A DNA stretch of 64,000 nt from an uncultured virus (IMG/VR IMGVR_UViG_3300035429_000176) (IMGVR_UViG_3300035429_000176), one strand, 5' to 3'; shown: positions 2,178-40,267, numbered from the stretch's first letter. Numbers and translations are program-made. The notes: generated by a model from the letters alone, not told the origin.

Positions 2178-3275
2178 ATGGCGACATATGATGATATATT
2201 AGGTAATGGAGGTGGCACACCTTTTCCGAAAGGTTCTAAAGAATGGCATGAACAGCAGCAAGACGGTTCTTCTGTACCTCCACCTGTAAAGGGTACACAG
2301 GAATGGGCGGAACAAAAAGCGGCCACCGCTCCTGTTGTTACCGCACTCAAACCTGACATAACTACTACGCCGCCACCTCCGACCAAGCAAGAAGGCTCGG
2401 ACGGTGGTGCCCTTTCATATGCTGAACTGTTCAAGAAACTTAATCCTTATACTCCACCAACTGACGAAGAACTTGCTAAAGAGAAGAAAAAGCAGAAACG
2501 TGACCAAATTTTTGCTGCAATTGGTGATGGTATATCGGCACTCTCGAACTTGTTCTTCACCACGCAGTACGCTCCAAATATGTATACCGGTAAAAATACC
2601 ATGTCAGAACGTACCAGAGTGAGGTATGACAGGCTGATGAAAGAACGTGAAGGCAAGGAGAAAGAATATTATGAGGGGCTGATGAGGGCAAAAATCGCCG
2701 ATGATGCAAAAGCAGACGGTGAACGTAAGTGGCAAAGACAGCTTGGCCTTGACAATTACAACCGCATACGGAACGATGCCAAAGAGGAACGCGACAGGCA
2801 GATGTTTGAATTGAATCTCCAGCTGCAAGGCAATAAAATATCTGCATCCGAAGCTGAGGCCAAGCGCAAAGGAATTGAAGCAAAATATGCAGAAGAACTT
2901 GAAAAGGCAAGGCTTGAAACCGAAAAGGCTAAAGCTAAGTATTATAACCGTGGCGGTAGTGGTGGTATGGGTGGTTCGTACAGCATTTACAACCCTAATA
3001 CTGGAAAGACGGAGTATTTTAAGAACCAGGGTGAGCGTGACCGCCGTGCGGGTGAACTAGGCTATGACATGTCTCCGGGAAGCTCATCAAGCGAAAGTAG
3101 TGATAACCTTATGGGAAACAAAAAAACAACCAGTCAAAAAGGTGCTTCGGCTTCCGCTAGACTTGGACAGCAGGAAGCCGAAAAGAAGAGAAAAGCCAAT
3201 GGCAAGAAAACAGGTCTCGGACTTGGGAACGGAGAAAACAATAGTAGTGGTAAGAAGACAGGATTAGGATTATGA
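2178..3275 (+). CDS. Putative internal virion/ejection protein (365 aa)
   Basis: Hydrophobic patch FAAIGDGISALSNLFF and coiled coils; stop overlaps the start of the giant ORF (ATGA). Confidence 0.65.
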   Translation: MATYDDILGNGGGTPFPKGSKEWHEQQQDGSSVPPPVKGTQEWAEQKAATAPVVTALKPDITTTPPPPTKQEGSDGGALSYAELFKKLNPYTPPTDEELAKEKKKQKRDQIFAAIGDGISALSNLFFTTQYAPNMYTGKNTMSERTRVRYDRLMKEREGKEKEYYEGLMRAKIADDAKADGERKWQRQLGLDNYNRIRNDAKEERDRQMFELNLQLQGNKISASEAEAKRKGIEAKYAEELEKARLETEKAKAKYYNRGGSGGMGGSYSIYNPNTGKTEYFKNQGERDRRAGELGYDMSPGSSSSESSDNLMGNKKTTSQKGASASARLGQQEAEKKRKANGKKTGLGLGNGENNSSGKKTGLGL

Positions 3276-15200: not shown

Positions 15201-18200
15201 AAGATTTCAGAGGGGTTACCCTGACTGACAACGAACTCCGCTATATCCTGTGGCGCAGTTATGAGAACCTTGCAGAACCAGGCAGATATCGCAGCATATT
15301 GGGAGAAGCTGCCGATATGAGTAAACAATATGAGCTGAAAGTTGGTAACTATGCTGAAATTTCAGAAAGTCAATCAACTGTAGCTGAAACCGATAATAAC
15401 TTGTATCGTGATGGAGACCCAGAGATACACGAGCGTACTTTGGCACGAGCAAAATATGAACAACGTGTGAAGAGTGGAATGTACCAGTCACAGGAAGCCT
15501 TGCAGGACGGTATGCTTGGTTTGAAAGAAGCAATGAATGCAATTCTCGGCAAGAATACCCGAATGGAAGATGTTGATGGATTTGAAAATGCTTACTTAGG
15601 TGAGAACCGCTTGTCAAGTGTGAACAAAGCCGAAGCCGATGCCTTTGCGCACCTATTGTTCAAGCCAATGCTTGAAGAGATAGCTAGACTTGCACACAGT
15701 GCAGCAGAGCGCGAAGAACTGACCGATTATATGATGGCTAAACACGGTCTTGAACGCAATAGAGTAATGGCAGAGCGTGATGCACAAAAGGACTTTGCAG
15801 AATACCAGAAGCAGCATCCGAAGGGTACAAAGGCTTTGCAGGACTTTATCGACGAGTGTCGCAAGCGTGATTATGCAGGTCTTACCGCCCTTGCAGGTAT
15901 GGAAGAGATTGTAGATGCAGAAGCCGAAGCACAGGCTATGGTAGATGAGTATGAGAACGCACACGATACCACCGCATTGTGGAGTAAGGTTAATGCCGTC
16001 AGCAAGGCAATCCTTTCCAAGTCCTACGAATGTGGAATGATGAGCAAGGAAACCTATGACAGTGTGAGAGATATGTATGAGTTTTATATCCCTTTGCGTG
16101 GATTTGATGAAAAAACGAGTGCTGAAACTTACGCTTACCTTACGCATAAGCAGAGTATATTCAATGCACCTATCAAGAAAGCGGAGGGAAGACGCTCTAA
16201 AGCGGACGATCCTTTTGCCAACCTGCAATCCATGGCCGAGAGTGCCATTATGCAGGGAAACCGCAACAAACTCGTGAAGCAGAAGTTCTTGAACTTTGCC
16301 CTCAACCATCCGAGCGACCTTGTTAGTGTGAGTGATTTGTGGTTGCAGTACGATGCAGTTTCCGATGAATGGAAACCGATATTCCCCGACAATATTGACA
16401 TCAACGATAGTCCCGAAGAGGTAGAGCGAAAGTTGAACGAGTTTGAGGATAAGATGAAGCAGCTTGCTGAATCTGCCCCCGATAACTACAAGCACGGCAA
16501 AGATGCGGCAAATATTCCGTATCGTGTTGTTGAGAGCCGAGATTTGCGACAACATCAAGTGGTGGTGAAGCGAAACGGCAGGGACTATGTGATTACCATC
16601 AACGGTAATCCGAGAGCTGCACAGGCATTGAACGGACAGACGAACCCGGATAATGACATCAGCGGAAGTATCGGTCAGCTTGTACATCTTATTGGAGATG
16701 TGAACAGAACACTGTCCTCACTGTACACCACATTACAGCCGGACTTCATTGCAAGTAACTTCTTGCGTGATATGTTATATTCCAATTCTATGGTGTGGGT
16801 TAAGGAAAGTCCGAAATATGCCATGCAATATAACAGGAACTTTGCGAAGTTGCCTATTGCAAGAATGGTTGTGTTATTGGATAAATACCGCAGGAGAACG
16901 CTTGATATGAACGATGAAACAGAGAAAATTTTTTATCAGTTCATGATGAACGGTGGCGAGACAGGATTTTCGAGAATGGCAGACATTGACGAGCATAAGA
17001 AAGAAATCAAGAAGATGCTGAAAGCGGCGAATGAAAAAATTCCTGCCCATGTGGTACGTGAATGTATGGCTACCTGGATAGGCGAAGTGGGACGAGGTAT
17101 AGAGATGCGTGCCCGATTTGCCGCCTTTGTAACAAGCAGGAATGCGGGCCGGACAATAGACCGCAGTATTTGGGATGCCAAGGAAATCAGTGTGAACTTC
17201 AACAAGAAAGGCGCAGGTGATAAGTTCTTGGGGGCTGAAGGACAAACCATGTTGGGAAATGTAGCAGCCGGTGTATCGGGTGCAGGACGAGCCGGATATA
17301 TCTTTTGGAATGCCGCCCTGCAAGGAACGTTCGGAAACTTCTTGAAGTATGCGATGAGGCATCCCGGTAAAATGGGTACTGTCGTTGCATCATGGTATGG
17401 TTTAGCCATGCTTGTTACCGCACTTGCTTCGGCTGGAGGTGATGATGACGATGACAGCTACTATGACATACCCGAGCATACTCGCAGACAGAACCTCATT
17501 GTCAAAGGACCTGGTAACGCATGGATAAAGATTCCTTTGCCTATCGAGTACCGAGCCGTGTATGCGATGGGAGAACTTACCGGTTCTTCCCTGTTCCATA
17601 ACGAGAAATTGGAAGTTAGTGATGTATTGGCACAGATGAGCAAGTTGCTTCCTGTAGATATGATGGAGGGGGCAAAAGCGTTGTGGCCAAGCAGCGTCAA
17701 GCCGATGGTGGAAGTATCGAATAACGAGAGTTGGTACGGTAGTCCGATATGGAAAGATACACCCTACAATAAATATATGCCGAATTGGACGAAAGCCTAT
17801 AAGAGTGCGAATAAAGACCTTGTAAACCTTTCTGAAACACTGAACGAAGTCAGTGGAGGAAGCAAATATAGGAAAGGTACTATTGACTTGAATCCTGCTG
17901 CCATTGAGTATCTATTGAAACAATACACCGGCGGCTTCTTCACTGTAACCAACCAAATTCGTAATTTGATCAATGTGGGAACAGGTGAAAAAGATTTTGA
18001 TTGGCGTTATGTTCCGCTTGCCAACCGAATGTTGATGAGCGGTGGCGATGAACGTAATGTAGGTAGGGGGCTGGATGAGAAGTTCTTTGGTTATTTGGAT
18101 GCATACCGTGCAAAGGCGAGTGAATTCAGCGCCATTAAAGGTGATTTGAGTTTACCGTTGGAGAAGAAAGCAGAACTGATAAGCGAGATTATCATTGATT

Positions 18201-18370
18201 CTGAATATGTAAAAATGAAAGGGATGGAACGTATTTACTCAAAACTAAAGAAAGCTTATGATACTGCTAAGGAAATCGGAGATACCTCAAAAGCAGAAGA
18301 ACTTGAAAAGAGGATTAATGAGTTAAAGCGGAAATTCATTTTAGAGATGGAGCAAGACGAACGTAAATAG
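3272..18370 (+). CDS. Giant polyvalent (DarB-like) virion protein, 5032 aa: ParB-like, inorganic pyrophosphatase-like, SF2 helicase, N6-adenine MTase, zincin-like peptidase and LPD38-like C-terminus
   Basis: LQPSH...GAPTV...GNNR (~7290-7500); QKEAGNYKKGH...YGYIRGTEGVDGDHIDVF (~8940-9135); NGTGTGKT (~11072), DESH (~11366), SATP (~11783), QIEGRIYR (~12703); YYPTP, VLEPSAGHG and NPPF (~13050-13325); HEAVAH (~14936). Confidence 0.88.
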   Translation: MTDDKLKNLYSVLKKDGYDDIGTEEQFRDAMKDKGKANQLFSVLKNDGYDDIGNDENAFYDALNPVVSESETLQPVVQTEQQSVSQQAATEQPWEPTEAEKNVIQEDLNRMARRTLQMTDAFNERVDNIQEYGLNPGLQTKEGKMQFNPVNGKIEKNYITPAGNKYTNKVLADMESFRYRQAADMSVSGQLRKANQRLSNIEERLEARGRELLEKHERNKPGGFTGFLQEMANTQAGDRMGGRTAENPEDYTELQGDSEYQSLRLAARKAREEIQQLQNTKDKEQHGERFWHDFLRNTWQSVADVDAWDFGVNKLRDARTMLDIAGKSEAGAELNEAETDALYEMYLHNNIMEQFGDLGRGARWGDIAGGSLSFMKDFLLTGGFSGVGTKLPTTLSTKIATKAATRVGVDAAESLGVKVAKEGLFSTVRQGGKKVVSRLLAEQGVGGVSGILATKALGVTAEDLLIRAPLMATTIQGQTTAAKIIDSKLGPVIADPETGILQFSDDKSWGEVAWQTGADQVIENFSEMWGAHLPGMADVTKTFGARNLTAALLRATRPGAETIMSKTTEFLGRAGVNGYFGEVGEEYYGQLWRTMLNLDSAYGMDKEGNKVNNLMTSEFHGDIWGGMALSIGLTGGGTMALNYAGKGMGKAYDGTKYTRYKHEINKADARAAEMFTPEVWEGMRTIIDSSDNSDMGNIAAQVIADTEMTDAQRSAAMDYMEKSMIMRGNNLREYVNRRNGDIPTHEEDEINQSYINGYNATGSQEMNDAKNMYDYQRERMKLELGVNDEALEGDAVDWLHEARNARDAGTEQGWKRADIIMDYVNAKQVYNGMIQRVRDDIDGRVEQSNSMIDARVNRKTGMIQGATMKQDERKVYVLSGTLVPYADGSGVSVTDSDNSIIVRDADTGGLEQVSPDAILSIDDVQDPYEQKELVAQSIREQFAREAADKIDGVVTFNPGETYTIVGEGGSQIQVTIVSDENGIIDNGDGTINVTDGTNVFPIAKEAIQQFVDASNIARIAEFEQQRAEENFALQQEEQEADRPQYAMNDLVTLRDENGIGIRGNITADVDADGLYEVYTEDALNGKRVNMFTREELDSMLIEHNGQPVEIANSSVNDNSEVAASSLEEQQLQVSALERIPKDEQGNPIYEQAETPDLAWDAIVEQTEGDEAMAQSVANGMVVDKEAALKKIEKTKSAGGNTIAEKIVAEKERKAAIDAAKQELSIWQKIAGTANRRKMEADAERRRIADEAAALRKAEEEKLRAEREEAERKEREALNGVPDIVEDVPKDARARGYRRVNGHKVDRQEPLQTVQGKEVNVKFSNDVVVPGNVTVIDASLLQPSHIQGVRNSLHFIDEAQPKERNDEASVLSARKIAENIRPEEITSSITAYTGAPTVNERGEVIQGNNRSDALRLMWESHSEQAEAYRQYLKDHAEEFGLRAEDIAPIQSPVLVNMLHVDDTEALNLGQFVAQDTESGGVERIKPKNTLQRMGTEMRSFANLLLRTSDDEMSFAGLVDANGANVLKWMSQRGFISHTQYKSAFDSKGNLTPESKNDLRGIMYQSIFKDGSTRLEEMFNVLPVKAQKAILATAFRDYDSPNSERMVDEIQNSVRAYYALSQDKMFAEAKNFKEARIAVENWKRQYQMDDVTGESYLPADNFSNFVLHLAAMYKGESQSFIQNTFGKIYDLIQGTQEETLFEQPDNTPRTLVQAIKEALNLDYNGQQRSNVLVGDTATSQRGQQGSNGALTPRERVEDGNGTTDDTGRTESIGEQSEIEPSLSQEEMLSSDDTDNQLSAKIARRIEVQEDDWVESGKYGDTYKQTIIVDGTHKVIKVDTPDTKGNYTGSTYEYDGQTFGDLLDVANYIDASSSLANAVAVAEKETDTTPTEKQKEAGNYKKGHVQVGTFNITIENPKGSVRSGIDTEGNKWETTMQNTYGYIRGTEGVDGDHIDVFLSDDIDGWNGRKVFVVDQYNEDGSFDEHKVMLGFNETDDAEAAYFANYDSDWAKNHKTVVTAVNLEDFEKWIDCSHRKTKPFAEYKSVKTVEGQNALQKNTQDNVPYTIAPVQYTTKRGKVLDMQIVKFGMELSKDEFRSANAFAKSLKGWYDAKQRGFLMRSEDDAKQLVDAVIPKEDAALSVTQSEDSENAVENTPQAGEDIFQMAERIAKEEEEKRRASKENARKAEEAGKEPVSLEHWKRMDGDARMAEAGKRPLTREEIESASTDEVLKANALDYLDGNQGMIQSISYLKVYEDVRYSNRTAAADSGATDSAQLDTPALGNEQRVDVRDRGQSGNSNARLDRETGEEGVPAEGGPLHADPSDARSDATGNGNGGSETLPVRESVLQPGDSRGDVHSGSSVRSGEGRDVGGRTGRKSSTTSRKNSKWGVQADTARNAKNDRGLDLNDPLDKELADTLKEFDSVLDEFNRAGREELSMSLVGMNSRQMEVLPRLVSAGAKVGYAYIKKGAHNFAEWAKRMREALGGKLKDAGLGENEIDAFIKEMWKSKLPMDGEVHTVEEWAGIIGKVELRKKVSESLEEKRKAQRAAEPIPVKTCDRENIVETLPFLLPQQQDDVLKAETQFFDESHDDRDHAFGKGYMFTNGTGTGKTYTGLGIVKRFIKQGKGRILILTPSQTKVKDWIEDAANLDIELNDLDKTAKARKDGTTAITEKGEGAVITTYANFRQNKALLEDLFDLIVYDESHRLLENKGGVGTTGSMQHYKLSNRNEQFAFLRLQDINPTWNELNAKNEEFSTQRDAIIKRIEKESGTTNELTLGQRGELPPVFNGNWTQGMELKFPELAKLRNECLSLDAKYAKEVKPELERQAKENVKHTKVVFLSATPFNTRENLDYVEGYIFSYPEKEKQDGYSTQSPRSQFYLEHFGAGYKWRYHRLESSGSNPEAVSKQEVEFSNYLQHTLQTMSGRIIDSPFDYSRNFPTVTLDKAEEFNNAMEELSRNKATSYAYHEVMGNYNYTSALFESMKVTQIIPRLKEHFVRGRKAVIFHRRVESKNPLVPPFKTIFDVAVQSLKEEYDATKKAENKKEIARLRRKYSGMLEWEQTLDLRMPREQLADAFGKNNVLFFSGKESKKIKDKAVEDFNNDASGKNVIVIQEDSGKEGISLHDTTGEHQRVLVTLALPQSPITALQIEGRIYRIGNKSNAIFEYPLLGLNTELMLFGQKFNQQVSTTENLALGSQARNLRESFARGVEEHSGNVDIDNQGVGGKEFDTPSHTETDAFDSAVLDYYTNQKLSGKRDSREGTDYYPTPEPLGFMMNQWGRIGDGESVLEPSAGHGAIARYVPRENPLTAVEPSQSLFSKLQIKAGGNGRKFENTIFEDYNVVNKHDVVLMNPPFGAGGRLAVDHVAKAFQHLEEGGRIVAIIPRGSTDKKFDKWYEEQKSVVLTAEIGLPDITFERAGTSVNCRVVVIDKVTNEILRQDAASRAVHMDLSGEHYEKIEDFFEEIRNIDVPERTIDHKAKLKKKAAPTARELRTVKGINYVSLTEDSISVSGRGVWGGLEWKDKTGKALINYLADQYRRFKSNYDYAVRDRRETQEAAYGEMKELACKLAGMTEDEMQRYIDKKSGDDMLYRSDELIESINEQFNEELQQQIDGTLPKGHIYQLGNPGNVLLGTGVPNLPIQLNSTRLIDKATRFGHNYGLEEIKDLVVALQSPIAVFAYGDKSKGQNIIVELSSNDKNFVVGMSLNPTVGGKTLEINSIRNVFPKDNAEWLNWITQEKLLYVDKERIQNLIDQQRTILADVDYLDLDSVTKIVESFENPSVERENLREGEGVYTDERLSYENDPVAKLLGQSRRTAKQRREFAQRERQRMAERVESLAEKLHLGNVEVVTDASVLEGKKQRAKGFYSKSTGKITIVIPNHTSTFDVEQTLLHEAVAHYGLRQLFGEHFDTFLDNVFNNADETIRKRIVDMAAKNGWDFRKATEEYLASLAEKTEFENINASWWRQIKDFFLNMLHKIGFEDFRGVTLTDNELRYILWRSYENLAEPGRYRSILGEAADMSKQYELKVGNYAEISESQSTVAETDNNLYRDGDPEIHERTLARAKYEQRVKSGMYQSQEALQDGMLGLKEAMNAILGKNTRMEDVDGFENAYLGENRLSSVNKAEADAFAHLLFKPMLEEIARLAHSAAEREELTDYMMAKHGLERNRVMAERDAQKDFAEYQKQHPKGTKALQDFIDECRKRDYAGLTALAGMEEIVDAEAEAQAMVDEYENAHDTTALWSKVNAVSKAILSKSYECGMMSKETYDSVRDMYEFYIPLRGFDEKTSAETYAYLTHKQSIFNAPIKKAEGRRSKADDPFANLQSMAESAIMQGNRNKLVKQKFLNFALNHPSDLVSVSDLWLQYDAVSDEWKPIFPDNIDINDSPEEVERKLNEFEDKMKQLAESAPDNYKHGKDAANIPYRVVESRDLRQHQVVVKRNGRDYVITINGNPRAAQALNGQTNPDNDISGSIGQLVHLIGDVNRTLSSLYTTLQPDFIASNFLRDMLYSNSMVWVKESPKYAMQYNRNFAKLPIARMVVLLDKYRRRTLDMNDETEKIFYQFMMNGGETGFSRMADIDEHKKEIKKMLKAANEKIPAHVVRECMATWIGEVGRGIEMRARFAAFVTSRNAGRTIDRSIWDAKEISVNFNKKGAGDKFLGAEGQTMLGNVAAGVSGAGRAGYIFWNAALQGTFGNFLKYAMRHPGKMGTVVASWYGLAMLVTALASAGGDDDDDSYYDIPEHTRRQNLIVKGPGNAWIKIPLPIEYRAVYAMGELTGSSLFHNEKLEVSDVLAQMSKLLPVDMMEGAKALWPSSVKPMVEVSNNESWYGSPIWKDTPYNKYMPNWTKAYKSANKDLVNLSETLNEVSGGSKYRKGTIDLNPAAIEYLLKQYTGGFFTVTNQIRNLINVGTGEKDFDWRYVPLANRMLMSGGDERNVGRGLDEKFFGYLDAYRAKASEFSAIKGDLSLPLEKKAELISEIIIDSEYVKMKGMERIYSKLKKAYDTAKEIGDTSKAEELEKRINELKRKFILEMEQDERK

Positions 18371-27978: not shown

Positions 27979-28617
27979 ATGGCTGTATATCAGAAGAACA
28001 AAATACAGGAGAATGTACGCACCGCCCTGGACCAAAACATGAACAGCGATACGTTGAAGATTATAGGCGATGTGGACACTCTTGCACTTGACGACATCAT
28101 TGCATCAAAGATTTTGGAAGCAGTAAAGCGTGTGCACAGCTCTGCACCGTCCTATTTGCTTGACGGCGGACACAACTTCGGTGATGCCATATATTGGAAA
28201 GAGCATGAAAGCGGATGGATATTACTGCCGGAAGATTTCATGCGTTTTGTCGTTTTCCAAATGAACGATTGGGAGCGTGCGGTATTTAATCCCATAAACA
28301 CCGATGACCCTGAATATGAAAAACAGTCTTCCCGATTTAAAGGCATAAGGGGAACATGTCAACGGCCTGTATGCGCCATATCCATACGGCCAGAAGGAAG
28401 AGTGATGGAATTTTATTCATGCAAAACGACAGAAGCGAAAGTGAGCCGTGCTGTATATCTGCCTTACCCGAAAATAGACAAATATGGCGCGGTAGAAATC
28501 TGTGAGAAATGTTATGATGCTGTGATATATACCATAGCTGCATTAGTATTAACGACATTCGGCGATACGGAAAAAAGTGCCGCATTGAACGAATTGGCTA
28601 AATCTGTATTAATATGA
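27979..28617 (+). CDS. Putative head-tail adaptor protein
   Basis: 212 aa; LPEDFMRF and AVIYTIAALVL patterns seen in adaptor/tail tubular proteins; position in the operon. Confidence 0.55.
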   Translation: MAVYQKNKIQENVRTALDQNMNSDTLKIIGDVDTLALDDIIASKILEAVKRVHSSAPSYLLDGGHNFGDAIYWKEHESGWILLPEDFMRFVVFQMNDWERAVFNPINTDDPEYEKQSSRFKGIRGTCQRPVCAISIRPEGRVMEFYSCKTTEAKVSRAVYLPYPKIDKYGAVEICEKCYDAVIYTIAALVLTTFGDTEKSAALNELAKSVLI

Positions 28618-31600
28618 GTTACGAATCAAAACATATAGACGGTGATGTCTCCGTTGGTCGCAATACAGCGATAGGTGGTGATGCGACCGTTCAGGGAAAG
28701 ACCCACTTGAAAGGAAACGTAATGGTGGACGGCTGGCTTGAGGCAAAGAATATCAAAGCAGCTAGTAAAGGTCTCTTTACTACTATTGAAAAATTGAAAG
28801 CAGCCTACCCGTTTCCGCATGACGGTTGGTGGGCACTTGTCGGGCTTTCCTTACCTGCTCCTATATACGTGGGTGATGGAGGCGAGTGGGTTCCAACTGG
28901 ACAGACAGGTGGTAATCCTTCTATAGACAGTGGTAAATTTAACGAAGCTGTTGAAAAGCTACAAGAAGATATTACTAAATTACAAGATGATGTATCGGAT
29001 ATAGAGGATAAAAATAACTCGCAAGATACTAACCTTACTACACTTGGGAATAGTGTCAATTCTTTGCAGGAACAGGTAAATACAACCAAAGACACCGCCA
29101 ACAAAGCAAGTGCCAAAGCGAATGAGGTAGGAAACCAATTGAATGACTTTAAGGGAACGAAAGGAGAAAATGGTGGTATTGCACCTCTTAATGAGTATGG
29201 AAAAGTACCTAGCCGTTATTTACCGGCTTCTATGGATGATGTGAAAGATTTCGACGGTTTCGTGGAAAAAGTGGTTGTTCAACCATCGTCTATCGGGAAA
29301 AGTTCAACGGATGATGGATGTAAGATTTACTACCATAAGGACACCGATTCGCTTGTTCTTTTCTATGACGGTGTATATTACAACAACTGGCTGGATTCCG
29401 AATTGTTTGGAAATGAAACTATTGACGGGATAACTCCTGTTTCGGATAAGGTGTATTCTGACACAATTACAAACAAGACTTATCGTTGGAGCGGTTCGGC
29501 ACTTGTTATCATTGGTTCAGACCTCGCCCTTGGCTATACAAGTTCGACCGCATTTCCGGGCGATGAGGGTGCGGATTTGAAGCAGAAAATGCTACAAGCC
29601 AATGAAGATATTACGGAAAACAAGAACGTATTGTTGTCCCATTACAAACAGATAGTAGCACGAAGCGTAGTAAATGTGAACCAACTCTTTGGACTTACTA
29701 ATCGTAAGATAACATTCTCGGTGGCTCTTGATAGATGTGCGACATCCGAATATGCTGAATCTTTGCAAATACCAGGTATTGTGCTTACCTTTCAGACTGA
29801 AGCAGGTTGGCAGTCCAAACAATGGGTTATCACTGATGATTGGAATAAGGAAAGCAACTGGACGGACTTCGGAGCTTCCAACGGAGAAAGCGTTGGCAAC
29901 ACAATCAATGTAAACGCCCTGTGCAAAGATGTGGAATATACGCTATCCACCGCCATAAAAGCAATTATTGACCTTGAGCAAGAGAGCGGAGTGGCATACA
30001 TTAAGAGCGGTATTGTAGTGACATTCAAGACTGCAGAGAGCGACACCAACGGTGCACCTGTATGGCTTGCCTATCAATTTACACGAGAAGTAAGCGATGT
30101 AAACCCGGATGATTTGAAGCCGTGGGTAGCCTTTGGAAACGGAGGTGGCAAGGTGGAAACATCGGACACCCCAGCAGAGGGAGGAAAAGATGCACTTTCA
30201 ACAGGCGGTGCTTACGCGATGCAGGAAAAAGCAATCGCTGGTTTTGACGAGGAAAGCGATGAGGATTATATCTACTACAAAGCTGTGAACCTGAATGGTG
30301 GACAAATAGAAGATGTGATACTGAAAATACCTAAGAACGGAGGTGGAGGCGGTTCCAGCGAGGACAGTACCCTATCCATTTATTTTGAGGATGTCGCTCC
30401 CATTGTAGCGTTCGGTTCTGACATAAAAATTAATGTGGCCCTACGTAGTGTGAGTTATCCGGGAGGTGTAGAAACACTTGGCGTTATCCGTAATGTGAGC
30501 ATAATTGATGCAAGTACGGGACTAACCCTATTTAGCGAGGACATGAATATCGTAGGTTCTGCAAGTGCCACAGACTACAAGTTTGAACTTGACTTTACTG
30601 GCTATTTCAGCGGAGCGGCGAGCAAGAGTTTCTTTGTGCAAGCTACAGATGCTGACGGAAATACTAAGAAGAAAGCCATTACAGTAGTAGCCGTGGACAT
30701 CACCGTGGAGCAGCCTATGGCATTGAACTACACAAGTGACACTGTTCTTACCGTAGGTGGATCCGCCAAGAACATCGAACAGTTTTATAAATTTCCCAAT
30801 AACACATCATCCATACTTGCGACCGTGGAAATGTACTACAACGGAGAATGGAAGAAACTCGGTGAAGCAATGGTAAGCGACAGTTATACCAAGAGTATAT
30901 CCGTAAATCCGAACGATGTGTTTGGTGGTGGTGAACGGCTCTCGCATGGTGCATATCCTGTGCGTATCTTCGGTACGGAAAGCAAGTCGGGGGTAAAAGG
31001 CAATACCATCTATTCAGCTCTTATGTGCATAGACGAGAATAATAGCACACCTATTGTCGCCCTCCGTTTCAATGACAAGAACAATGGTACATTGCGTCTG
31101 TATGACAATCTGACCGTAGAAGTAGCTGCCTATACACCTGACAAGACAGAAACGCATATTGATGTCTTCTATGATGAAGAAAAGGTTACTTCTGTTGATG
31201 CCATGATTGCTGAAACGATTACCGTGAACAAGCAGATAAGCGGCTATAAGGCGGACGGAAGCCAAAGTATTACTGTACACGCTGAAAGTGGAAGTGTCAG
31301 CACCAATGAAATAGAAGTGACGGTTAAAGGAAGTGCCATTGACATTGCCATCAAGGACGGTGCTTTGTTTGGGTATGACTTCTCCACACGAAGCAACAGT
31401 GAAAGTGACCACACCATTATCAACAATGGGGTAAAGATGGAAATCAAAGGTGCGAACTGGTCAAGCAACGGATTTATAGACTATCTGAACGAACGCTCTT
31501 TGCGCATTGCCGAGAATGTGACAGCCGAGATATTGGATTACCGTCCTTTCGGAAATCCGTCCGTAGAAAGTGCTAGTGGTTGTGCTTTCCAATTCGCTTT

Positions 31601-34600
31601 TGCGACCAAGAACATCAAGGAAGCCAGCTCAAAACTCATAGAGTGTTACGATGCCGACAGCGGTGCCGGATTCTATGTATGCGGAAACAAGGTTGCTATT
31701 TTCTGCAAAACAGGTCAGCCGGCATTGGTAGAACGCTCTTTTAAGAACGGAGAAAAGCACACTATGGCTATCGTTGTAGAGCCTTCAACTATCTTTGTAA
31801 CCCGTGGTGGCAGCAACTATTCATGCATGAAGCTGTATTTAGATGGCGAAGAGGTGGGCTGTATAGGATATATCAGTAACAGCGGAGCTATTCTCAACTC
31901 AAAGACTGTCACTTTTGACGGAACAGAGGGAGACCTATACCTTTATTACATCCTTGCTTACAACAGTTACTACGAGTGGGCACAGGCATTTAGAAATTAC
32001 TTGTGCAAACTGACCGACACAACGGCGATGATTGATGAATATGAGAGGGAGAATTTGCTTGATACGCAAAACCGTCCGACTCTTGAATCTCTTGCCGCCA
32101 AAGGTATCCCTTACTATGTAGTTGTGAATGATCAGCAGACTTTTGACACCTTTGACGGAGATATTGACACGAGCAAGAAGTTCAAATGCACACTATTCTA
32201 CTATGATCCCAAACGACCTTGGCGCAGCTTCAAGGCTATCAATGTGCAATGGCGCAGACAGGGAACGACATCGGCAAAGCGCCCTATCAAGAATGCCCGT
32301 TTCTATCTTCAGAAGAATGACGGTTGGAAAGTTTCTCCTATCTATCCGGAATATACCAACGAAGATGCAAAGGTTTCGTATGACCTGATGAAATTAGGCT
32401 ATGTACGTGTAGGCGAGAATTCTATACCTGTGAAAATCATCACGGTAAAGGTGGACTACTCCGATAGTAGCAATGCCAATGACTGCGGAGTTTGTAACCT
32501 TATGAATGCTACATATCGTGCCCTTGGCAACAACTATCTGACTCCGGCACAACGTGCCTTTGACGGAACATGGGTAAAAGGAGACATATCATTGAGCGGA
32601 TTGACGATGAACCATTCGACTGCCAACCACCCGATTGCCGCATTCCGTTCGACTATGGAAAGTCTTACCGATGCTTGGTTCCATGCCAAAGGTAATTGGA
32701 AAGAGGATAAAGGCGAGCAGGTGGCACTCGGTTTCAAAGACACACCCGGCTACAACAAAGGGTGTTTGAACTATGGCGACTTCATCGAATACTTCGGCAG
32801 AAGAGACGAAACCCTTGATGAAATTGAATCACGCTTCAAGAGCGATAGTACCACAGACAAAAGTAAACTCTATATGCTCTCCCTTTATTGTGGCGAGAAC
32901 TACCGCTTTATGGCATACGAGAGCGGTGCTTGGACTGTACAAAGCGGAGAAATGAAGCAGGTAGATGGCGAGTGGCAGATAACAGGTAAGGTGTTGAATC
33001 CTGTAAGCGGTTATGAGCTGCTGACTTATGATGCCATGAACTGGTGGCAGGGAGTGGGAAGCATTGATGACATGATGGAACCGACCACGGCAGAATCATC
33101 GTGGGTAACAAAACTGAAACTCGGACAACCGACCTATCCGATGTGGACACGCTACTTCGAGTGTATGATAGACGATGACCAACTGCAAATAGACTTGGCT
33201 ATGGGACGCAAAGTGCCTTACGACTTGTTTAACGTGTTGGTGTTCTGTGACAGTTGCGACTATGCCAAGGAGGAACTTAAAGACACTTGGAAGGAGATTT
33301 GGAAAACGAAGATGTGGAAGTACATAAATCCGTACAGCCTTGTGTCGTACTATCTCTTTACGGACTACCTTGCCGCCGTTGACCAACAGGCGAAGAATAT
33401 GCAACCTATGTGGTTCTTGGAGGACGGTTGCAGCGTGAAAGACGGAGTATATAGCGGAGCAAACGGTATGGAAGCCAGAAGAATGTACTGCAACAAGGTG
33501 TATGATTGTGATACCTGTAACGGCAAGGACAATGACGGTGGCCAGACCATTGATCCGGAGGTTGACCCTGGCGACTTGACGAGTAGCGCGTACGCAGGAC
33601 GAGGCAGCGTGTTGTGGAACGACATACGCGGACAGCAGACTATGGAGGTGGATCAAAACGGTAACACCATTACGCTTTCGGCTATCGCTGACACCATGCG
33701 TTCACTTCCGGACACGCTCGGCATTGGTTCGGGGCCATTCTCTCCGAAAGGTGCGCTCCATTACTTCGTTACGGAAATATTGAAGAAGTGGCCAAAAGTG
33801 GTGTCAAGTTACGACGGAGAGCGTAAGTACATCAAATACACCGGATACAGCGATATTTATTTCTATGCTTTGCAGGGATTGGGACTTACTTCTTTACCGG
33901 CGTTCATCGAACAACGTTGGAGAATCCGCGACGGCTACTACCGTTGTGGCGACTTCAAAGCAGAGAGCGGTTATATAGGCGGTCGTATCGGTGCGAAAGA
34001 GGGGGCGGTTATTCGTTTTAAGGCTGCAAAGACAGGCTACTTCGGAATTGGTAACGACAGTGGAAACATCACGCAGGGCATCTATCTGAAAGCAGGAGAA
34101 GAGGGTGTGTTCAGTAATTTCCAACATGGCGAGAACATCATGCTCTACATCTATCAAGCCGACCGTATGAGTATGATTGACTTGAGTGAAATCAGCATTG
34201 ACCCTCAATTCGGTAATACATTGTCGAAGATGGTGTTGTTGCAGGAACTTTTCCTTGGTAGCAACACGCACGGAGATTGGACGATGTCGCCTGGTAACAC
34301 TGGCTATATGACCAATCTTGATTTGGGCGATATGCCGTTCTTGCGGGTATTCGATGTGCGGCATACGGAACTATTGAGCGTTAACGCATCGAAGTGTCCA
34401 CGTTTGGAGAAAGTATATGCGGATGGCACAGGGTTATCGACCATAGACCTTGCAGAAACTGCTCCCATTAGTACATTGACGCTGCCCGATACGATGACGG
34501 AACTTGTATTGAACAATTTGCCAAACCTGACTTATCCCGGAGGACTTACGCTAGGAGGTGTAGGCAAGGTAGCAAAGATATTCGTAAATGAATGTCCGTA

Positions 34601-36540
34601 TGTGGATGCTATGACACTTTTAGAGCAGATAATTAATGCGAGTGCGATCAGAACTGTACGTATTCCTAATGTAAATGCAACTGCTAGTGTTGATTTGTTA
34701 CGTTCTATAAAGGATAGTGGAGCAATTGGGCTTGATGCAAACGGGAACGCATACGATGAGAGTGGACAATGTAGTGGTATTACAGGACGTTGGATATTGA
34801 GTGAACTTGTAGAAGAGAGTGAAGTAAATGTCCTTACTGCATATTTTCCACAGTTAGAGCTCCATAATTCGCAATTTTCTATTGTGAAAATCAATGATGT
34901 TGTGGATAACGATTCATGTGAGAAGTACAGCAATCCTGAAAACAAGACAGGTGAAGACTACGGTAACACATATATTCCTAGTGGGCATACTCTTGCTATA
35001 AAGAAAGGTTGCCATGCTTTTAAATGCTCGTTCAACACGAAGAAGAATCAAATGGAAGGTGTACAGTTGAGTGATACAGACTTTAATTATCTGAAAGATG
35101 GTAGTAGCTTTGATGTTACAGATACGGCAGGGGAGGGTTTTGATATATTTTGGCATGCTCCTCACTATTGGTATAAGGGCGTAAATGATTATAAGAACCA
35201 AGTGAAGTATTTTATTACTTCTGTTACGGAAAACGAGCCTATTTCAACTGCATTACATAGCAAGAAGGCTAAACTTTCTGAACTTCTGTACAAGGAGAAC
35301 ACTGGAGTGTATGCGAATGATGCTGTTATTGGTGAGGTTATGAGTGAGGATGTTATATCTACAGCTTCTAATACTAACAGCTATAAGATGGACGTAAAAG
35401 GTATGAAGCAGGTGAAATGGCCGGGATTGAATCATGCGCGACTAGGTGGTGTATTCACTGATGAAAGTAATTGTGTACTTGGTATATTCATTATGTCCGT
35501 AAGTCATACGTATTTTGACTTTTCTATAGGTGAGTGTGTATTCTGCGATGTACCTAGCGGTGCAAAATGGTTCTATTTTACTTCTTTTCGCGACATTGGT
35601 GATGTAGAGTGTCTTTCTGTGGATAGTGCTAGCATTGAGGCTCTTGAGCCGGAATGGATTGAACATACAGTAGGTGATAATGACAGTCTTGTAGGTGTTT
35701 ATCCTATTACTATTGACGGTTTGAAGATGCCACGAAGTCTTTCTGGCGAGGTACGCTCAAAGAAAGGTAATGGTACATCCACTACGTCAGGTGAATGGAA
35801 ATACGACAGTAGTGGTAATCCTATTGAGATGCCGATTGCTACCTTAAACTACACAGCAAAGGATTTCCAGAATATTTCCCGTTTGAGAGGTGCAGGTTAC
35901 CAATTACAGGATTATGAACAACACAAAGAGATTAGTAATCTTTGGTGGGCATTAAACGGAACAACCAACGAACAATCTGTAGTCGGTAATGGAGGACATG
36001 ACGCTATTTTAAATAAGCTGGATTCCATTGGCATGGCAGATAGTAGTAATGCTGGCAATTCCCTTAATTCTATACTTGGTTTGAAGCATTATGTAGGCTG
36101 TGATTCAGAGTGGATGGATTATATTGCATTTAATATCCCAAGTTATGAAACATTCTACAAAGCAAAATGTATTGATACTGATAGTTCGTATCCTTCGGAT
36201 TATATAGCTCATATTTATGATCCTGTGAAAAAGACTGAACGTACAGTGAAATCAGTTGAATCTTCCAATGCAAATTGTGTGGTACGCTTGGTGCATGGAG
36301 CAAAATGCGATGTTTTGCCAAGCAGGGTTCATAATGCAGATACAAGTAAGTATGTTACTCATTATGCGGCTGGTTATTGGATCAATAGTAGCAAAGGCCG
36401 TTGTGTTTTGCGGTCCGGCAGCAACTCGATTGCGAANNNNNNNNNNNNNNNNNNNNNNNNNNNNNNNNNNNNNNTCGAACTCGAACACGAACTACGGGGC
36501 GCGTCTGGCCTTCCGCGGAAAATTCGTAATAATTGAATAG
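28614..36540 (+). CDS. Large tail/adhesin protein and DGR target (~2641 aa): coiled coil, LamG-like, CotH-kinase-like, LRR and C-terminal C-type-lectin-like variable domain
   Basis: The N gap (36437-36474) is 38 nt but the aligned TR segment (37448-37484) is 37 nt. Correcting this gives the true C-terminus ...SNSNTNYGARLAFRGKFVIIE* at 36540. Confidence 0.85.
36397..36513 (+). repeat. DGR variable repeat (VR)
   Basis: Aligns to the TR. All 5 readable mismatches are at TR adenines (36421 G, 36430 T, 36508-10 GCC). The central 38 nt are N. Confidence 0.95.
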
Positions 36541-36549
36541 AGCGATGCT

Positions 36550-36610
36550 CGTTTTTGCGAAAAAAGCGTTAGAGGGAGAGTCGACCAACGGGAGACTGCT
36601 CCCTCTCTCT
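36550..36610 (+). promoter_or_regulatory. Post-VR hairpins (candidate DGR target-recognition cruciform and/or terminator)
   Basis: CGTTTTT-GCGA-AAAAAGCG with a GNRA-type loop, then AGAGGGAGAGTC...GACTGCTCCCTCT followed by a T-rich run. Confidence 0.6.
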
Positions 36611-36665
36611 TTTTCTAATGTAGGTTGGGTAATATATTATAGAGCAGCATGAATATTTGTGCCTT

Positions 36666-36702
36666 AAAATGTTCTATATATGGAACATTTTTTGTATCTT
36701 TG
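36666..36702 (+). promoter_or_regulatory. TA operon promoter (TATCTTTG 36695-36702) with palindromic operator AAAATGTTC-TATATATG-GAACATTTT
   Basis: Perfect 9-bp inverted arms (36666-74 and 36683-91) just upstream of the -7 box. Confidence 0.75.
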
Positions 36703-36719
36703 CAATGCAATAACAAGGT

Positions 36720-37064
36720 ATGGAATTGAAAGCAAGATTCAAAGTGATAATGTCAAGCGAGGCAGATGCCTTTCTTGATACTTTGCGCCAAGACATTAAA
36801 GACAAGATTGTTTATAATGTAGATAAGGTTGCCAATGGATATATGGATAAAGACCTTTTTAAAAAATTGGATGGTACGGATATTTGGGAGTTCCGCACCC
36901 TGTATAAAGGTATTCAATATCGTCTGTTGGCTTTTTGGGACACCGACGCGGAAACGTTGGTCATTGCCACGCATGGATTTGTGAAGAAAACACAAAAGAC
37001 CCCACGCAAAGAGATAAACAAGGCGGAAGCCGTCAGAATATTATATTTCAACTCAAAAAAATAA
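36720..37064 (+). CDS. RelE/HigB-like toxin (Gp49/DUF891 type)
   Basis: IWEFRT...YRLLAF...HGFVKKTQKTP..EI signature. Confidence 0.88.
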   Translation: MELKARFKVIMSSEADAFLDTLRQDIKDKIVYNVDKVANGYMDKDLFKKLDGTDIWEFRTLYKGIQYRLLAFWDTDAETLVIATHGFVKKTQKTPRKEINKAEAVRILYFNSKK

Positions 37065-37068
37065 GTAT

Positions 37069-37380
37069 ATGGAAGCAATTAAATTTTATACCCTTGATGA
37101 AGTTAAGGATAAACATATAGGTGAGGTCGGTACACCGCACAGAGATAAGTATGAAGCTGAATTGCAATCATTTTTGATTGGGGAAGCCATAAAAAAAGCC
37201 CGTAAATCCCAAAACATGACCCAAGAGGAATTGGCACAAAAAATCGGTGTACAGCGTTCACAAGTATCCAAGATAGAAAGCGGACGTAATCTGACCCTTT
37301 CCACCATTGCGCGAGTGTTTAAGGCCATGGGTATGAAGGCGTCTTTGAGTATTTCCGGTTTAGGAAGCATAACTCTTTAA
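37069..37380 (+). CDS. XRE-family HTH antitoxin (HigA-like)
   Basis: MTQEELAQKIGVQRSQVSKIESG HTH; toxin-first gene order. Confidence 0.88.
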   Translation: MEAIKFYTLDEVKDKHIGEVGTPHRDKYEAELQSFLIGEAIKKARKSQNMTQEELAQKIGVQRSQVSKIESGRNLTLSTIARVFKAMGMKASLSISGLGSITL

Positions 37381-37407
37381 AAAAATAAAAGGCGGACAAT
37401 CCCTCGC

Positions 37408-37523
37408 GCCGTTGTGTTTTGCGGTCCGGCAACAACTCGAATGCGAACAGCGGTCTCGCTTATGCGAACGCGAACAACGCTTCATCGAACTCGAACACGA
37501 ACTACGGGGCGCGTCTGAAATTC
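37408..37523 (+). ncRNA. DGR template repeat (TR)
   Basis: AAC-rich copy of the VR (AAC AAC TCG AAT GCG AAC ... AAC TAC GGG GCG CGT CTG AAA TTC), directly upstream of the RT gene. Confidence 0.95.
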
Positions 37524-37626
37524 TGTTGGTTAAATTAATCGGAGACCCTGCACAGGTACGAGATTACCACCGCCATTCTCCGAGGGATTCGAGCCTCGGC
37601 AACAGCATGATAATATATATTTATTA

Positions 37627-39117
37627 ATGGAAAGCCGGAACATATCTTTAACCACATGTGGGGAGAGGTTGGACCACTCCCTACGAGACCGGAAGGCGGT
37701 CAGCGATATATACGATTTATTCCAACCGGCCGTAGCTGCACCTGCGGTCTGTTATCCGTTATATAATCTCATACCGGAGATTATATCCGATGAGAATTTG
37801 GAAAGGTCATTCAAGCGTGTCATGGCAAATCTGAGAAGTGCAGATACCCGAAGCGGGAATCGGCAAAGAGAGATAGCTGTAATAGATGGCATTGAATGTT
37901 CACCAAGAATGGTCCGTTATGTAAAAAACAAGCATAAGATACTTGATGCACTGAAAGAACAGATAGGTAACGGCACATTCCGTATAAAGAACCTCAAGTC
38001 GTTTACTGTGGATGACGGACCGAAAGTAAGAATTGTGCAAGCCCCGTCAGTCATAGAGCGTATTGGAAGCAATGCGATTATGGAGCCGTTGGAAAAGCAT
38101 CTTTCACCCCTATTGATAGAAACAACGGCTGCATCCATACAAGGACGTGGACCGCATGGTTTGTTTCATCAGGTGCAGGATACATTGGCAGAGAACCCCA
38201 ATATACACTATTATTATCAAAGCGATTATAAAGGATATTATGACAGTATCGACCATGATATATTAATCTCCACAATCAGGCGGTATGTCGGAGACCCTGT
38301 CTTATTGCCTATTCTTGAAAATTTTGTCAAAGCACTATATCCCAACGGGAAGCATGGCATAAGCAAAGGACTGCGTTCCTCACAATTCTTTGGAAACCTT
38401 TACCATAATGATATTGATCACCGGATGATTGATGAATATGGTGCAAAACATTACTTCCGTTTTTGTGATGACATCTTTATTCTCGGTGAGAGTAAACGTG
38501 ATTTGTGGAAATTGCGGGACAAACTACACTATGAAGCAGCTCAAATAGGGCTGACAATAAAACCAAGCGAAAAAGTGGCTCCCATATCCGCCGGTATGGA
38601 TGCCCTTGGCTTTGTCAACTACGGCGACTATACATTGCTACGAAAACGGACAAAAGTAAATGCAGCCCGAAAACTTTCCAAGATTAAATCACGGAAACGG
38701 AGACAGCAAATAATTGGTTCATTCAAGGGTATGGCCTGCCATGCAGATTGCAAACATTTATTTTATATACTTACCAAGAACAACATGAAGAAATTTTCTG
38801 AAATGGGTGTTACGTACACTCCAGCAGATGGAAAAAAACGCTTTCCCGGCAAGGTTATGCGTTTGAGTGACATCGTAAATATTCCAATTGAGATACATGA
38901 TTTTGAAACAGGAATAGACACCAAAGAGGGGGAAGACCGTTATCTGGTATCGTTCCGCAATTCCAGGACTCAAGAATGGGGAAAGTTCTTTACTGCATCG
39001 GTTGAGATGAAAGGGATTCTTGACCAAATCAGCGATATTGAGGACGGCTTTCCATTTGAAACAGTTCTCAAATGTGAAATGTTTGACGGAGGCAAACGAA
39101 AATACAATTTTACCTGA
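37627..39117 (+). CDS. DGR reverse transcriptase with a fused ~110-aa C-terminal domain; start codon uncertain
   Basis: QSDYKGYYDSIDH, GISKGLRSSQ (DGR-type GxxxSQ), YFRFCDD and GMDALGF motifs; adjacent TR. Confidence 0.93.
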   Translation: MESRNISLTTCGERLDHSLRDRKAVSDIYDLFQPAVAAPAVCYPLYNLIPEIISDENLERSFKRVMANLRSADTRSGNRQREIAVIDGIECSPRMVRYVKNKHKILDALKEQIGNGTFRIKNLKSFTVDDGPKVRIVQAPSVIERIGSNAIMEPLEKHLSPLLIETTAASIQGRGPHGLFHQVQDTLAENPNIHYYYQSDYKGYYDSIDHDILISTIRRYVGDPVLLPILENFVKALYPNGKHGISKGLRSSQFFGNLYHNDIDHRMIDEYGAKHYFRFCDDIFILGESKRDLWKLRDKLHYEAAQIGLTIKPSEKVAPISAGMDALGFVNYGDYTLLRKRTKVNAARKLSKIKSRKRRQQIIGSFKGMACHADCKHLFYILTKNNMKKFSEMGVTYTPADGKKRFPGKVMRLSDIVNIPIEIHDFETGIDTKEGEDRYLVSFRNSRTQEWGKFFTASVEMKGILDQISDIEDGFPFETVLKCEMFDGGKRKYNFT

Positions 39118-39118
39118 C

Positions 39119-39163
39119 GGGAAAAAGATAACATACTAATCCGCTCGGTATCCGCTACTTTTG
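39119..39163 (+). promoter_or_regulatory. Promoter motif copy 7: GGGAAAAAGATAACA-N22-TACTTTTG, upstream of the lysis/tail operon
   Basis: Same core and spacing as the other copies. Confidence 0.7.
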
Positions 39164-39184
39164 TCGTAAATCAAAATTCATGCA

Positions 39185-39691
39185 ATGGAAAAGATTTACG
39201 GCACAAAGAAGCGGCAGGATTGTCTTGTACGTACAGGACGCTCCAAGTGGATACTGTTTTATGGCTTCGGGAAAGATGATGAGAATAGTGAGAATGGCTG
39301 GGAGTACCGGCATACATTCGACCATAAACCCACACTTTCCGAAGTCAAGGAACTTGTTGTGTCCGCTATAAACACGGCTACGGAGGAAAAGATTATAAAC
39401 GGCTTTGTCTGGAACGGGAAAGCGGTATATCTTTCACCCGAAAACCAATTAAACTTTTCCGCTATAGAACGTAGTGAAAAGATTCCTTATCCGCTTATTC
39501 TAAAAATCAATGAACAGGAAGATGGTACGCCCATCTATCATACTTTCGAGAATGCAGATGATTTTATTGCGTTCTCCCAAGCAGCGTGCGCCTATGTGAT
39601 AAAGACTGTTCAGGAAGGGTGGAAAGAAAAGGATGAAGTGGATTGGACGGTATTTAATTTAAAAAGTAATAACGATGAAAAAGTTGATTGA
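39185..39691 (+). CDS. DUF4376-like tail-associated protein
   Basis: GFVWNGKAVYLSPENQLNF and GWKEKD motifs. Confidence 0.6.
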   Translation: MEKIYGTKKRQDCLVRTGRSKWILFYGFGKDDENSENGWEYRHTFDHKPTLSEVKELVVSAINTATEEKIINGFVWNGKAVYLSPENQLNFSAIERSEKIPYPLILKINEQEDGTPIYHTFENADDFIAFSQAACAYVIKTVQEGWKEKDEVDWTVFNLKSNNDEKVD

Positions 39692-39920
39692 ATGGCTCGG
39701 AATGAGTAACAGGTGGAAACACCTCATAGGAGGACTGATTATCGGCATTTTTGCATTTGGTTGGTTTACCGCAATGTATGCCGGAGTTTTGACAGCAGGT
39801 GCTTTGGAATATAAAGACAAGGTGCATGGCGGTAGATGGGATTGGATTGACTTTGGTCTTACAGTAGCCGGAGCAATGATAGGACAACTAATAGGAGGAA
39901 CTTTAATATGGAACAACTAA
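39675..39920 (+). CDS. Small membrane protein of the lysis cassette (holin-like)
   Basis: NRWKHL...ALEYKD..GGRWDWIDF; hydrophobic. Confidence 0.6.
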   Translation: MKKLIEWLGMSNRWKHLIGGLIIGIFAFGWFTAMYAGVLTAGALEYKDKVHGGRWDWIDFGLTVAGAMIGQLIGGTLIWNN

Positions 39921-40267
39921 GCACAATTATCCAAGTTGTCGGTTCGCTCATCACATTAGTTATATTGCCCTTGCTATTGCTTAGAAGCAAAAAGAAAAAG
40001 GCAGATGCCGAGGCTGAAAAAACCGAAGCAGATAACATCACAGCTTATGCTGCTGAATGGAAAGAATTGTACGAGAAGAAGGAAAAGCGAGTTGTCGAAC
40101 TGGACGCCAAAATTGACCACCTTTACGCCGAGATAACCAAGTATCGTGACGCTATCCGCGAGCTAAGCAAAAAGAACAGCGAGCTTGCCGTTCAGAATCA
40201 AGCACTGGAATTCCGGAAATGCAATAAACATGGTTGTGCAGACCGCGTCCCACCAAGTGAATATTAA
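39908..40267 (+). CDS. Putative holin (N-terminal TM plus coiled coil)
   Basis: One TM segment, then a coiled coil; immediately upstream of the endolysin. Confidence 0.6.
   Translation: MEQLSTIIQVVGSLITLVILPLLLLRSKKKKADAEAEKTEADNITAYAAEWKELYEKKEKRVVELDAKIDHLYAEITKYRDAIRELSKKNSELAVQNQALEFRKCNKHGCADRVPPSEY

Follow-up and report, generated by a model that had tools for sequence, protein, structure and literature searches.

The 64,000-nucleotide stretch of uncultured viral DNA analysed here (IMGVR_UViG_3300035429_000176; hereafter the window) carries a diversity-generating retroelement (DGR) in which a toxin-antitoxin (TA) gene pair lies between the variable repeat (VR) of the target gene and the template repeat (TR) that precedes the reverse transcriptase (RT) gene. 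Comparison with relatives suggests that a TA operon with its own predicted operator and promoter has replaced the promoter box otherwise found close to the TR, and that toxin, antitoxin, TR, RT and the accessory gene CH1 are likely read as one antitoxin-repressed transcript, a reading to which we assign a probability of about 0.68. The window belongs to a 69.9-kb provirus record that carries portal, capsid and integrase genes; the host element is likely a gut Bacteroidales prophage, and the mutated target is likely a tail protein. The nearest named phage is Bacteroides phage BS-TP4, with 91.5% identity across 35500-39700.

An earlier note on this DNA, made from the sequence alone, had ordered the cassette as target/VR, hairpins, operator-promoter, toxin, antitoxin, TR and RT. 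Open reading frame (ORF), Pfam, repeat and motif checks bear this order out and refine it to target/VR, hairpins with a terminator-like site, palindrome, TAnnTTTG box, toxin, XRE-family helix-turn-helix (HTH) antitoxin, TR, RT and CH1 (Table 1). Both the DGR and the pair of a RelE/HigB-like (Gp49) toxin with an XRE antitoxin are real, judging from their sequence features. The genes have the form of a toxin-first two-gene operon, a Gp49 toxin followed by its XRE-HTH partner. Residues W56, E57, R59, R68 and H85 of the toxin, which we take to be the catalytic residues of a RelE-like active site, are invariant or nearly so among 30 homologues and align to Streptococcus pneumoniae HigB 6AF3, which the toxin resembles (E=9e-4). 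The TA genes are intact, and toxin dN/dS values of 0.03-0.15 in five pairs, with 0.03-0.06 for the toxin of the window, indicate purifying selection. The protein search with the toxin gave near-identical copies only, among the 120 matches listed.

The evidence for a promoter exchange comes from a census of related RT loci, drawn from viral and genome collections with at most 80 matches kept per search, a sampling that leans to close kin. After duplicate removal 194 unique loci remained, 152 of them with a resolved VR-TR pair; the other 42 comprise 19 with too little upstream DNA, 12 with a toxin, 2 apparently without a TA and 9 in which the target is fused to the TR. The slot between VR and TR is empty in 80 of the 152 (93-233 bp, no ORF of at least 60 aa) and holds a TA pair in 72, namely 40 of a first type, TA-1 (30 with the window's antitoxin type and 10 with another), and 32 of a second, TA-2. 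The slot of the window itself contains no other plus-strand ORF of at least 60 aa. Among the resolved loci, 61 of the 62 with an RT identity below 63% are empty, and 71 of the 90 at or above 63%, a threshold set post hoc, carry a TA.

These counts change the standing of the TA genes in the cassette. The earlier note had placed them in the accessory-gene slot and proposed a survey of related phages for its occupant; the 80 empty and 72 TA-bearing loci reveal no default gene, and the accessory gene of the lineage is CH1, downstream of the RT, which that note overlooked. Its statement that no avd-like gene is present holds for the cassette slot, which contains the Gp49 toxin and XRE genes, the slot being the part of the genome searched for avd. 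The survey of Wu et al. 2018 (PMC5758913) agrees: its Lineage 3 is without avd, and 13 of its 14 CH1 DGRs are free of inserted genes, the exception, #134, being listed as TG-X1-X2-TR-RT-CH1, with X1 and X2 given as 'toxin RelE, 114 aa' and 'transcriptional regulator, 103 aa'. The window DGR is assigned to Lineage 3a and architecture E1 of that survey by its A-specific VR/TR differences, DGR-class RT next to the TR, CH1 after the RT and absence of avd from the cassette. Since this lineage normally has no gene in the slot (both in our 80 empty loci and in the CH1 DGRs of Wu et al.), the TA pair is an insert, and the idea that it replaces avd was ruled out.

The promoter signals differ between the two states of the slot. 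TAnnTTTG is the -7 promoter element of Bacteroidetes (PMC7366714), and the box at 36695 is the sole exact plus-strand match in 36400-38000. Of the 80 empty-slot relatives, 61 have an exact box no more than 70 nt from the TR (shuffled sequences: mean 2.1, maximum 6), as against none of the 72 TA loci, all of which have the box before the toxin. No TA locus has an exact box between toxin start and TR, and none has a hairpin with a T-tract between antitoxin and TR by a crude rule; ahead of the box, the same rule finds such a hairpin in 59 of 72 TA loci and 39 of 80 empty ones. A conserved leader of the TR starts 7-13 nt past the antitoxin stop in all 72 TA loci, and its motif recurs in 74 of 80 empty loci. 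In the window 27 nt intervene between antitoxin stop and TR, close to the 28 noted before, and the earlier remark that neither box nor terminator lies between them stands, the terminator-like plus-strand sites in 35500-40000 being confined to 36590-36609. The placement of the box, next to the TR in empty slots and only before the toxin in TA loci, implies that TR and RT are likely read from an autorepressed TA promoter. A scan for sigma-70 promoters gave hits at chance level and addressed the wrong promoter type.

Each TA type is also preceded by a palindrome of its own. The motif found in the window occurs in 40 of 40 TA-1, 0 of 32 TA-2 and 1 of 62 empty loci, and a second motif in 32 of 32 TA-2 loci and in no other group; both motifs were picked after the sequences had been inspected, and they replaced a count of perfect palindromes that missed imperfect operators (10 of 40 for TA-1). 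As to a wider antitoxin regulon in the phage, the 64-kb window has a single copy of the exact operator core, and five if one mismatch is allowed. Homologous TA pairs are present in 79/301 and 80/301 of the Bacteroidales genomes searched. Where toxin homologues lie outside DGRs, the partner gene adjoins in 59 of 59 loci, and 53 of these 59 have the same box, many with a similar palindrome, which indicates that promoter and operator belong to the TA itself. In TA-2 the toxin ATG lies 4 nt past the box in 32 of 32 loci (for example locus L069, 3119-3138), as in many non-DGR homologues of TA-2, and a leaderless mRNA is predicted for it.

The same non-DGR loci bear on the proposal that toxin and RT form a defence unit of the retron kind, with the toxin restrained by the RT or by its RNA or cDNA. 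Likely co-transcription of toxin and RT and the toxin/antitoxin model of retrons (PMC8867640) would suit such a unit. The toxin has a protein partner, however, in all 59 non-DGR loci, none of which has an RT within the flank of about 1.5 kb; the RT is a DGR RT that is usually toxin-free (80 of 152 loci), and PADLOC returns a partial NsnC-domain match only. We consider this arrangement extremely improbable.

RNA libraries offer a further view of the junctions. Nine runs recorded as RNA contain the stretch, and the contigs of 4 of 17 listed runs, from three studies, were compared. Contigs span the antitoxin-TR junction in all four runs and reach from toxin to CH1 in two, with single contigs covering 36715-39453 and 36720-39717 in two studies. 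The contig beginning at 36715 has 11 extra letters that match the common allele, which puts its end 4 nt past the box of that allele, at the distance also found for the TA-2 toxin ATG in 32 of 32 loci, a weak indication. Two contigs of one study stop at 37697, near the end of the RT-3 RNA, possibly as an artefact of structure. Cover of the lysis genes is thin or absent and depth differs between contigs; neither was used as evidence.

Several observations weigh against the proposed TA-driven transcript. The contigs reveal neither the strand nor the start of transcription, cannot establish a single transcript and were compared with no silent-region or DNA control, which makes the bridging RNA a weak hint, and one contig (X12) begins inside the toxin gene, at 36980. 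Eighteen of the 80 empty slots have no exact box, so that a missing box is no proof of a missing promoter and other promoter forms exist in the family. One-mismatch boxes occur inside the TA genes, and internal promoters are frequent in toxin-first operons (PMC10643148). The VR mutation load, moreover, is similar with and without a TA: the changed fraction of TR adenines is 0.46, 0.44 and 0.54 in three TA groups versus 0.525 in empty loci (64 TA versus 76 empty full-length VRs, p=0.044, uncorrected for kinship), and within one clade 17 TA and 11 empty loci differ with p=0.16. Strong damping by the TA is hence not visible. VR-TR distance was rejected as a measure of rate, being weak: its values lie near the density of about 50% per event (bioRxiv 2024.11.15.621889), and kin are not independent.

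Taken together, the contig start, the imperfect boxes, the frequency of internal promoters and the box-less empty slots would fit a passenger TA, with TR and RT read from a cryptic or internal promoter of their own that is independent of the operator. Yet only 7-13 nt separate the antitoxin stop from the leader, none of the 72 TA loci has an exact box after the toxin start, none of the near-match boxes is common to all TA types, and the internal promoter of a Gp49-family homologue is inactive (PMC5906591). A passenger TA therefore seems improbable, and the earlier suggestion that the TA promoter is the source of the TR-RT RNA finds good support in the comparison of boxes and in the TA-type palindrome, with the bridging contigs adding little. 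The box-less empty slots (our loci L365, L383, L368, L384, L363, L364, L318, L319, L310, L313, L315, L325, L326, L386, L387, L390, L331 and L340) include several with a hairpin directly before the leader, an arrangement that suggests a longer leader or another form of promoter.

Under the proposed TA-driven transcript, transcription would start near 36707 and run through toxin, antitoxin, TR RNA, RT and CH1, and the antitoxin would repress it at the palindrome. The supply of TR RNA and RT would be held at a level set by this feedback and would rise once free antitoxin is degraded. Published work makes an effect on the rate of diversification plausible. The HigBA2 system of Acinetobacter baumannii, of the Gp49 family, is autorepressed, has an inactive internal promoter and is raised in stationary phase and under iron limitation (PMC5906591); TA transcription can go up under stress without the toxin being active (PMC10643148, citing LeRoux 2020); and Bacteroides DGR activity tracks the transcript levels of avd, TR and rt, differing 100- to 10,000-fold (bioRxiv 2024.11.15.621889). 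DGR activity of Hankyphage rises by a different route, on release of the phage repressor (PMC12135933).

Whether such coupling has been selected is a separate matter. The earlier note had tied receptor diversification to stress through antitoxin turnover, which is plausible as a mechanism, but the VR mutation load barely differs with or without the TA. That gut Bacteroidales phages have repeatedly wired DGRs to TA promoters, so that antitoxin turnover adjusts receptor diversification in the lysogen to stress, is a tentative proposal, with the odds somewhat against it; if true, it would represent a natural, swappable regulatory cassette for DGRs, with TA-less sister alleles as built-in controls. 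The stronger version, in which TA promoters were recruited repeatedly because antitoxin turnover raises receptor mutagenesis in stressed lysogens, could draw on at least two unrelated TA pairs in the same slot, each with its own promoter, on the TA content of the loci at or above 63% RT identity, on the stress response of TA transcription and on a coupling of DGRs to stress raised merely as a possibility (PMC12875486). This version is unlikely, because the 80 TA-less relatives mutate anyway and viral DGRs appear steadily active rather than triggered by stress (PMC8144416). Within the cassette the slot is, besides, the one intergenic site shielded by a predicted terminator, and recurrence there may reflect tolerance of inserts. 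An active RelE-like RNase, finally, is expected to cut the RT mRNA as well. The similar VR load and the steady activity of viral DGRs favour the view that the TA is a module maintained for addiction or defence, on whose promoter the DGR depends; the pair would most likely be kept for that function in the prophage, with DGR control as a by-product.

The history of the slot is one of repeated capture and exchange. Toxins of TA-1 and TA-2 are 36% and antitoxins 32% identical, with RTs that are 72-74% identical. Monophyly of the 11 DGR-slot toxins is rejected (p-AU 1.9e-5) in a tree of 66 toxins whose non-DGR entries had been retrieved with the same DGR toxins as queries. TA-2 also accompanies RTs of 64% and 50% identity. 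By these comparisons the slot captured TA pairs at least two times. In a quick RT tree of 61 representatives the states of the slot are scattered, and even near-identical RTs can have different ones. The cassette of the window is a mosaic too: its upstream part resembles one clade (95.9%), whereas antitoxin, TR and RT resemble another (99-100%). Recombination within its conserved flanks probably carries the slot from one phage to another, and the VR-TR gap of avd-less DGRs is, on present comparisons, an exchangeable promoter cassette.

The repeats that bound the slot carry the marks of adenine-specific mutagenesis. In the window the readable mismatches in the body of VR and TR are two, at 36421 and 36430, both opposite TR adenines, and over the 33 nt that follow a run of N the VR equals the TR. 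The earlier count of five mismatches, all at TR adenines, thus stands for these two positions; the three at 36508-36510 (opposite 37518-37520) are a fixed difference between VR end and TR end, present in every VR-retaining relative compared, and so are not products of mutagenesis. The run of N is 38 nt long in the VR and 37 nt in the TR (the offset changes from 1011 to 1010); this difference shifts the target frame across the gap only, and the target end is read in the register of the TR. Across the 152 loci 2139 mismatches fall at TR adenines and 58 elsewhere, with an aligner that favours A mismatches, and A-biased VR differences occur in all resolved relatives, with or without a TA.

The position of the TA between 116-nt direct repeats raises the possibility, compatible with a TA-driven transcript, that it serves as a deletion guard, killing lysogens that lose the DGR core by VR-TR recombination. 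Fused forms, in which no VR-TR gap is left and the target ORF continues directly as the TR, do exist, including the record of an isolated phage (L140; BKO1-TP3, PQ571269; 2400-2530) besides L033, L185, L224, L236, L271, L274, L356 and L378, and the toxins are under purifying selection. Of the nine fused forms, however, three fall in TA clades, five in TA-less groups and one in a mixed clade, without a clear deficit among TA carriers, and they are either real recombinational deletions or assembly collapses, two origins that cannot be told apart. We regard a guarding role as improbable; the wider suggestion of the earlier note, that the TA stabilises the cassette, may hold, the counts of fused forms speaking neither way. 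In loci L025 and L119 most of the TR and the spacer are gone after the antitoxin, with the TA and most of the RT kept, by deletion or by misassembly at a short repeat.

The remaining parts of the cassette are those expected of the lineage. The RT of the window belongs to the 83% clade of Wu #134, and a modelled relative, 64% identical, has the DGR RT 8UBD as its best structural match (E=2e-15). Roughly the first 40 codons of the RT, which overlap the structured spacer, have a low-confidence model in a relative; distant RTs lack these codons, so the start at 37627 is tentative. The C-terminal 110 aa of the RT are highly conserved, are predicted to form an OB-fold and match a PHROG family of 105 positions that has no assigned function; their model has a pLDDT of 85 and a weak best match, with Z 6.2, to the single-stranded DNA-binding protein (SSB) of PRD1, and a search of the ESM Atlas with this tail returned only unnamed clusters, with scores below 0.9. 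The domain is a candidate for the role of Avd where DGRs lack avd. Predicted pairs join leader and spacer (37390-37393 with 37593-37596, and 37398-37403 with 37584-37589), and compensatory changes in this pairing are seen among 14 aligned sequences, the structure being derived from the same alignment. The pairing would close the TR into a loop; the Rfam RT-3 match spans the spacer only. CH1 follows the RT in 57 of 58 representatives.

Table 1. Features of the DGR cassette in the window
Feature	Position	Strand	Basis or remark
DGR target gene	28614..36540	+	ORF of ~2640 aa with C-terminal VR; likely tail/receptor-binding protein
VR	36397..36510	+	Partly N; closes with fixed VR-specific end
Hairpins, then GC-rich hairpin with T-tract	36540..36613	+	Predicted terminator insulating target from cassette
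Palindrome, predicted antitoxin operator	36666..36691	.	9-bp arms
Bacteroidetes -7 box TAnnTTTG	36695..36702	+	Exact match; predicted +1 ~36707
RelE/HigB-like toxin, Gp49 (DUF891) family, 114 aa	36720..37064	+	Pfam PF05973, E=1e-17
XRE-HTH predicted antitoxin/repressor, 103 aa	37069..37380	+	HTH_3, E=2e-15
Conserved TR leader	37390..37407	+	Predicted pairing with spacer
TR with AAC codons	37408..37520	+	Repeat alignment
Structured spacer RNA, Rfam RT-3 (RF03068), overlapping RT start	37537..37700	+	73.3 bits against gathering score 40.5
DGR RT, 496 aa	37627..39117	+	RVT_1; C-terminal domain 38785-39114 predicted OB-fold/SSB-like
CH1 accessory gene, DUF4376-like, 168 aa, pI 5.0	39185..39691	+	Homologous to CH1 of Wu DGR #134

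The target protein matches PHROG 14959 (E=5e-245), matches the tail family PHROG 5302 weakly and is homologous to gp14 of BS-TP4; no Pfam match to the Laminin_G_3, CotH or CLec3 domains of Lineage 3a targets was found in its 2640 aa, PHROG 14959 being the only family assigned. Elsewhere in the window, a 5032-aa polyvalent protein at 3272-18370 combines InPase, ddrB-ParB, helicase, MuF_C and LPD38 domains.

Both gene families are known and the layout was tabulated in 2018 without interpretation; what seems new is the predicted exchange of promoters. The literature searched, with subscription papers, figures and some supplements lying outside its scope, discusses no TA within a DGR beyond the table of Wu et al. 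and no DGR that is driven by a TA promoter, and the accessible text of PMC11863486, PMC8008677, PMC12724379, PMC8867640, PMC5737381 and PMC12875486 describes no TA-driven DGR. For a cultured and prevalent phage, BS-TP4, found in 31.3% of 930 viromes (PMC12694917), the locus supplies candidates for the promoter, operator and repressor that act on TR and RT. If the TA-driven transcript is confirmed, it would open the timing of diversification in such phages to experiment, for which near-identical RTs with and without the TA are natural controls; even an accidental coupling predicts TA-dependent diversification.

The closest described system is Wu DGR #134 of Bacteroides sp. 1_1_14 (NZ_GG774705; Lineage 3a, E1-X; PMC5758913), which shares layout, spacing and an RT of the 83% clade; the accessible part of that paper lists X1 and X2 as non-DGR genes that give no obvious insight, and it contains no analysis of promoter, operator, second TA type or transcript. 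BS-TP4 (PQ571277; PMC12694917) has the same RelE, regulator, RT and DUF4376 genes, and a DGR is reported for it in a paper whose main text, as far as accessible, uses neither 'toxin' nor 'RelE'. The Lineage 3a/E1 DGRs of Bacteroides prophages (TG-TR-RT-CH1) likewise lack avd, have CH1 after the RT and carry a very long target with a C-terminal VR, and the window differs from them by a TA operon in place of the TR-proximal box. In the DGR of Bordetella phage BPP-1 (mtd-avd-TR-brt) a gene also precedes the TR in what is treated as a single operon, with a structured spacer after the TR; avd is an essential part of the mechanism there, whereas the TA of the window is unrelated and dispensable, being absent from 80 of 152 relatives. 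HigBA systems of the Gp49 family (A. baumannii HigBA2, PMC5906591; S. pneumoniae HigB, PDB 6AF3) share the toxin-first order, Gp49 toxin, XRE antitoxin and promoter palindrome, and the operon of the window differs in that it likely continues into a retroelement RNA and its RT. The nearest parallel in concept is offered by the TAs of Tn3 transposition modules (bioRxiv 848275), which were likewise captured repeatedly and independently at a fixed position of the core, with stabilisation and coupled expression proposed as roles. In Tn3 elements promoters of the res site may drive the TA, whereas in the window the likely direction is the reverse, from the TA promoter into the element.

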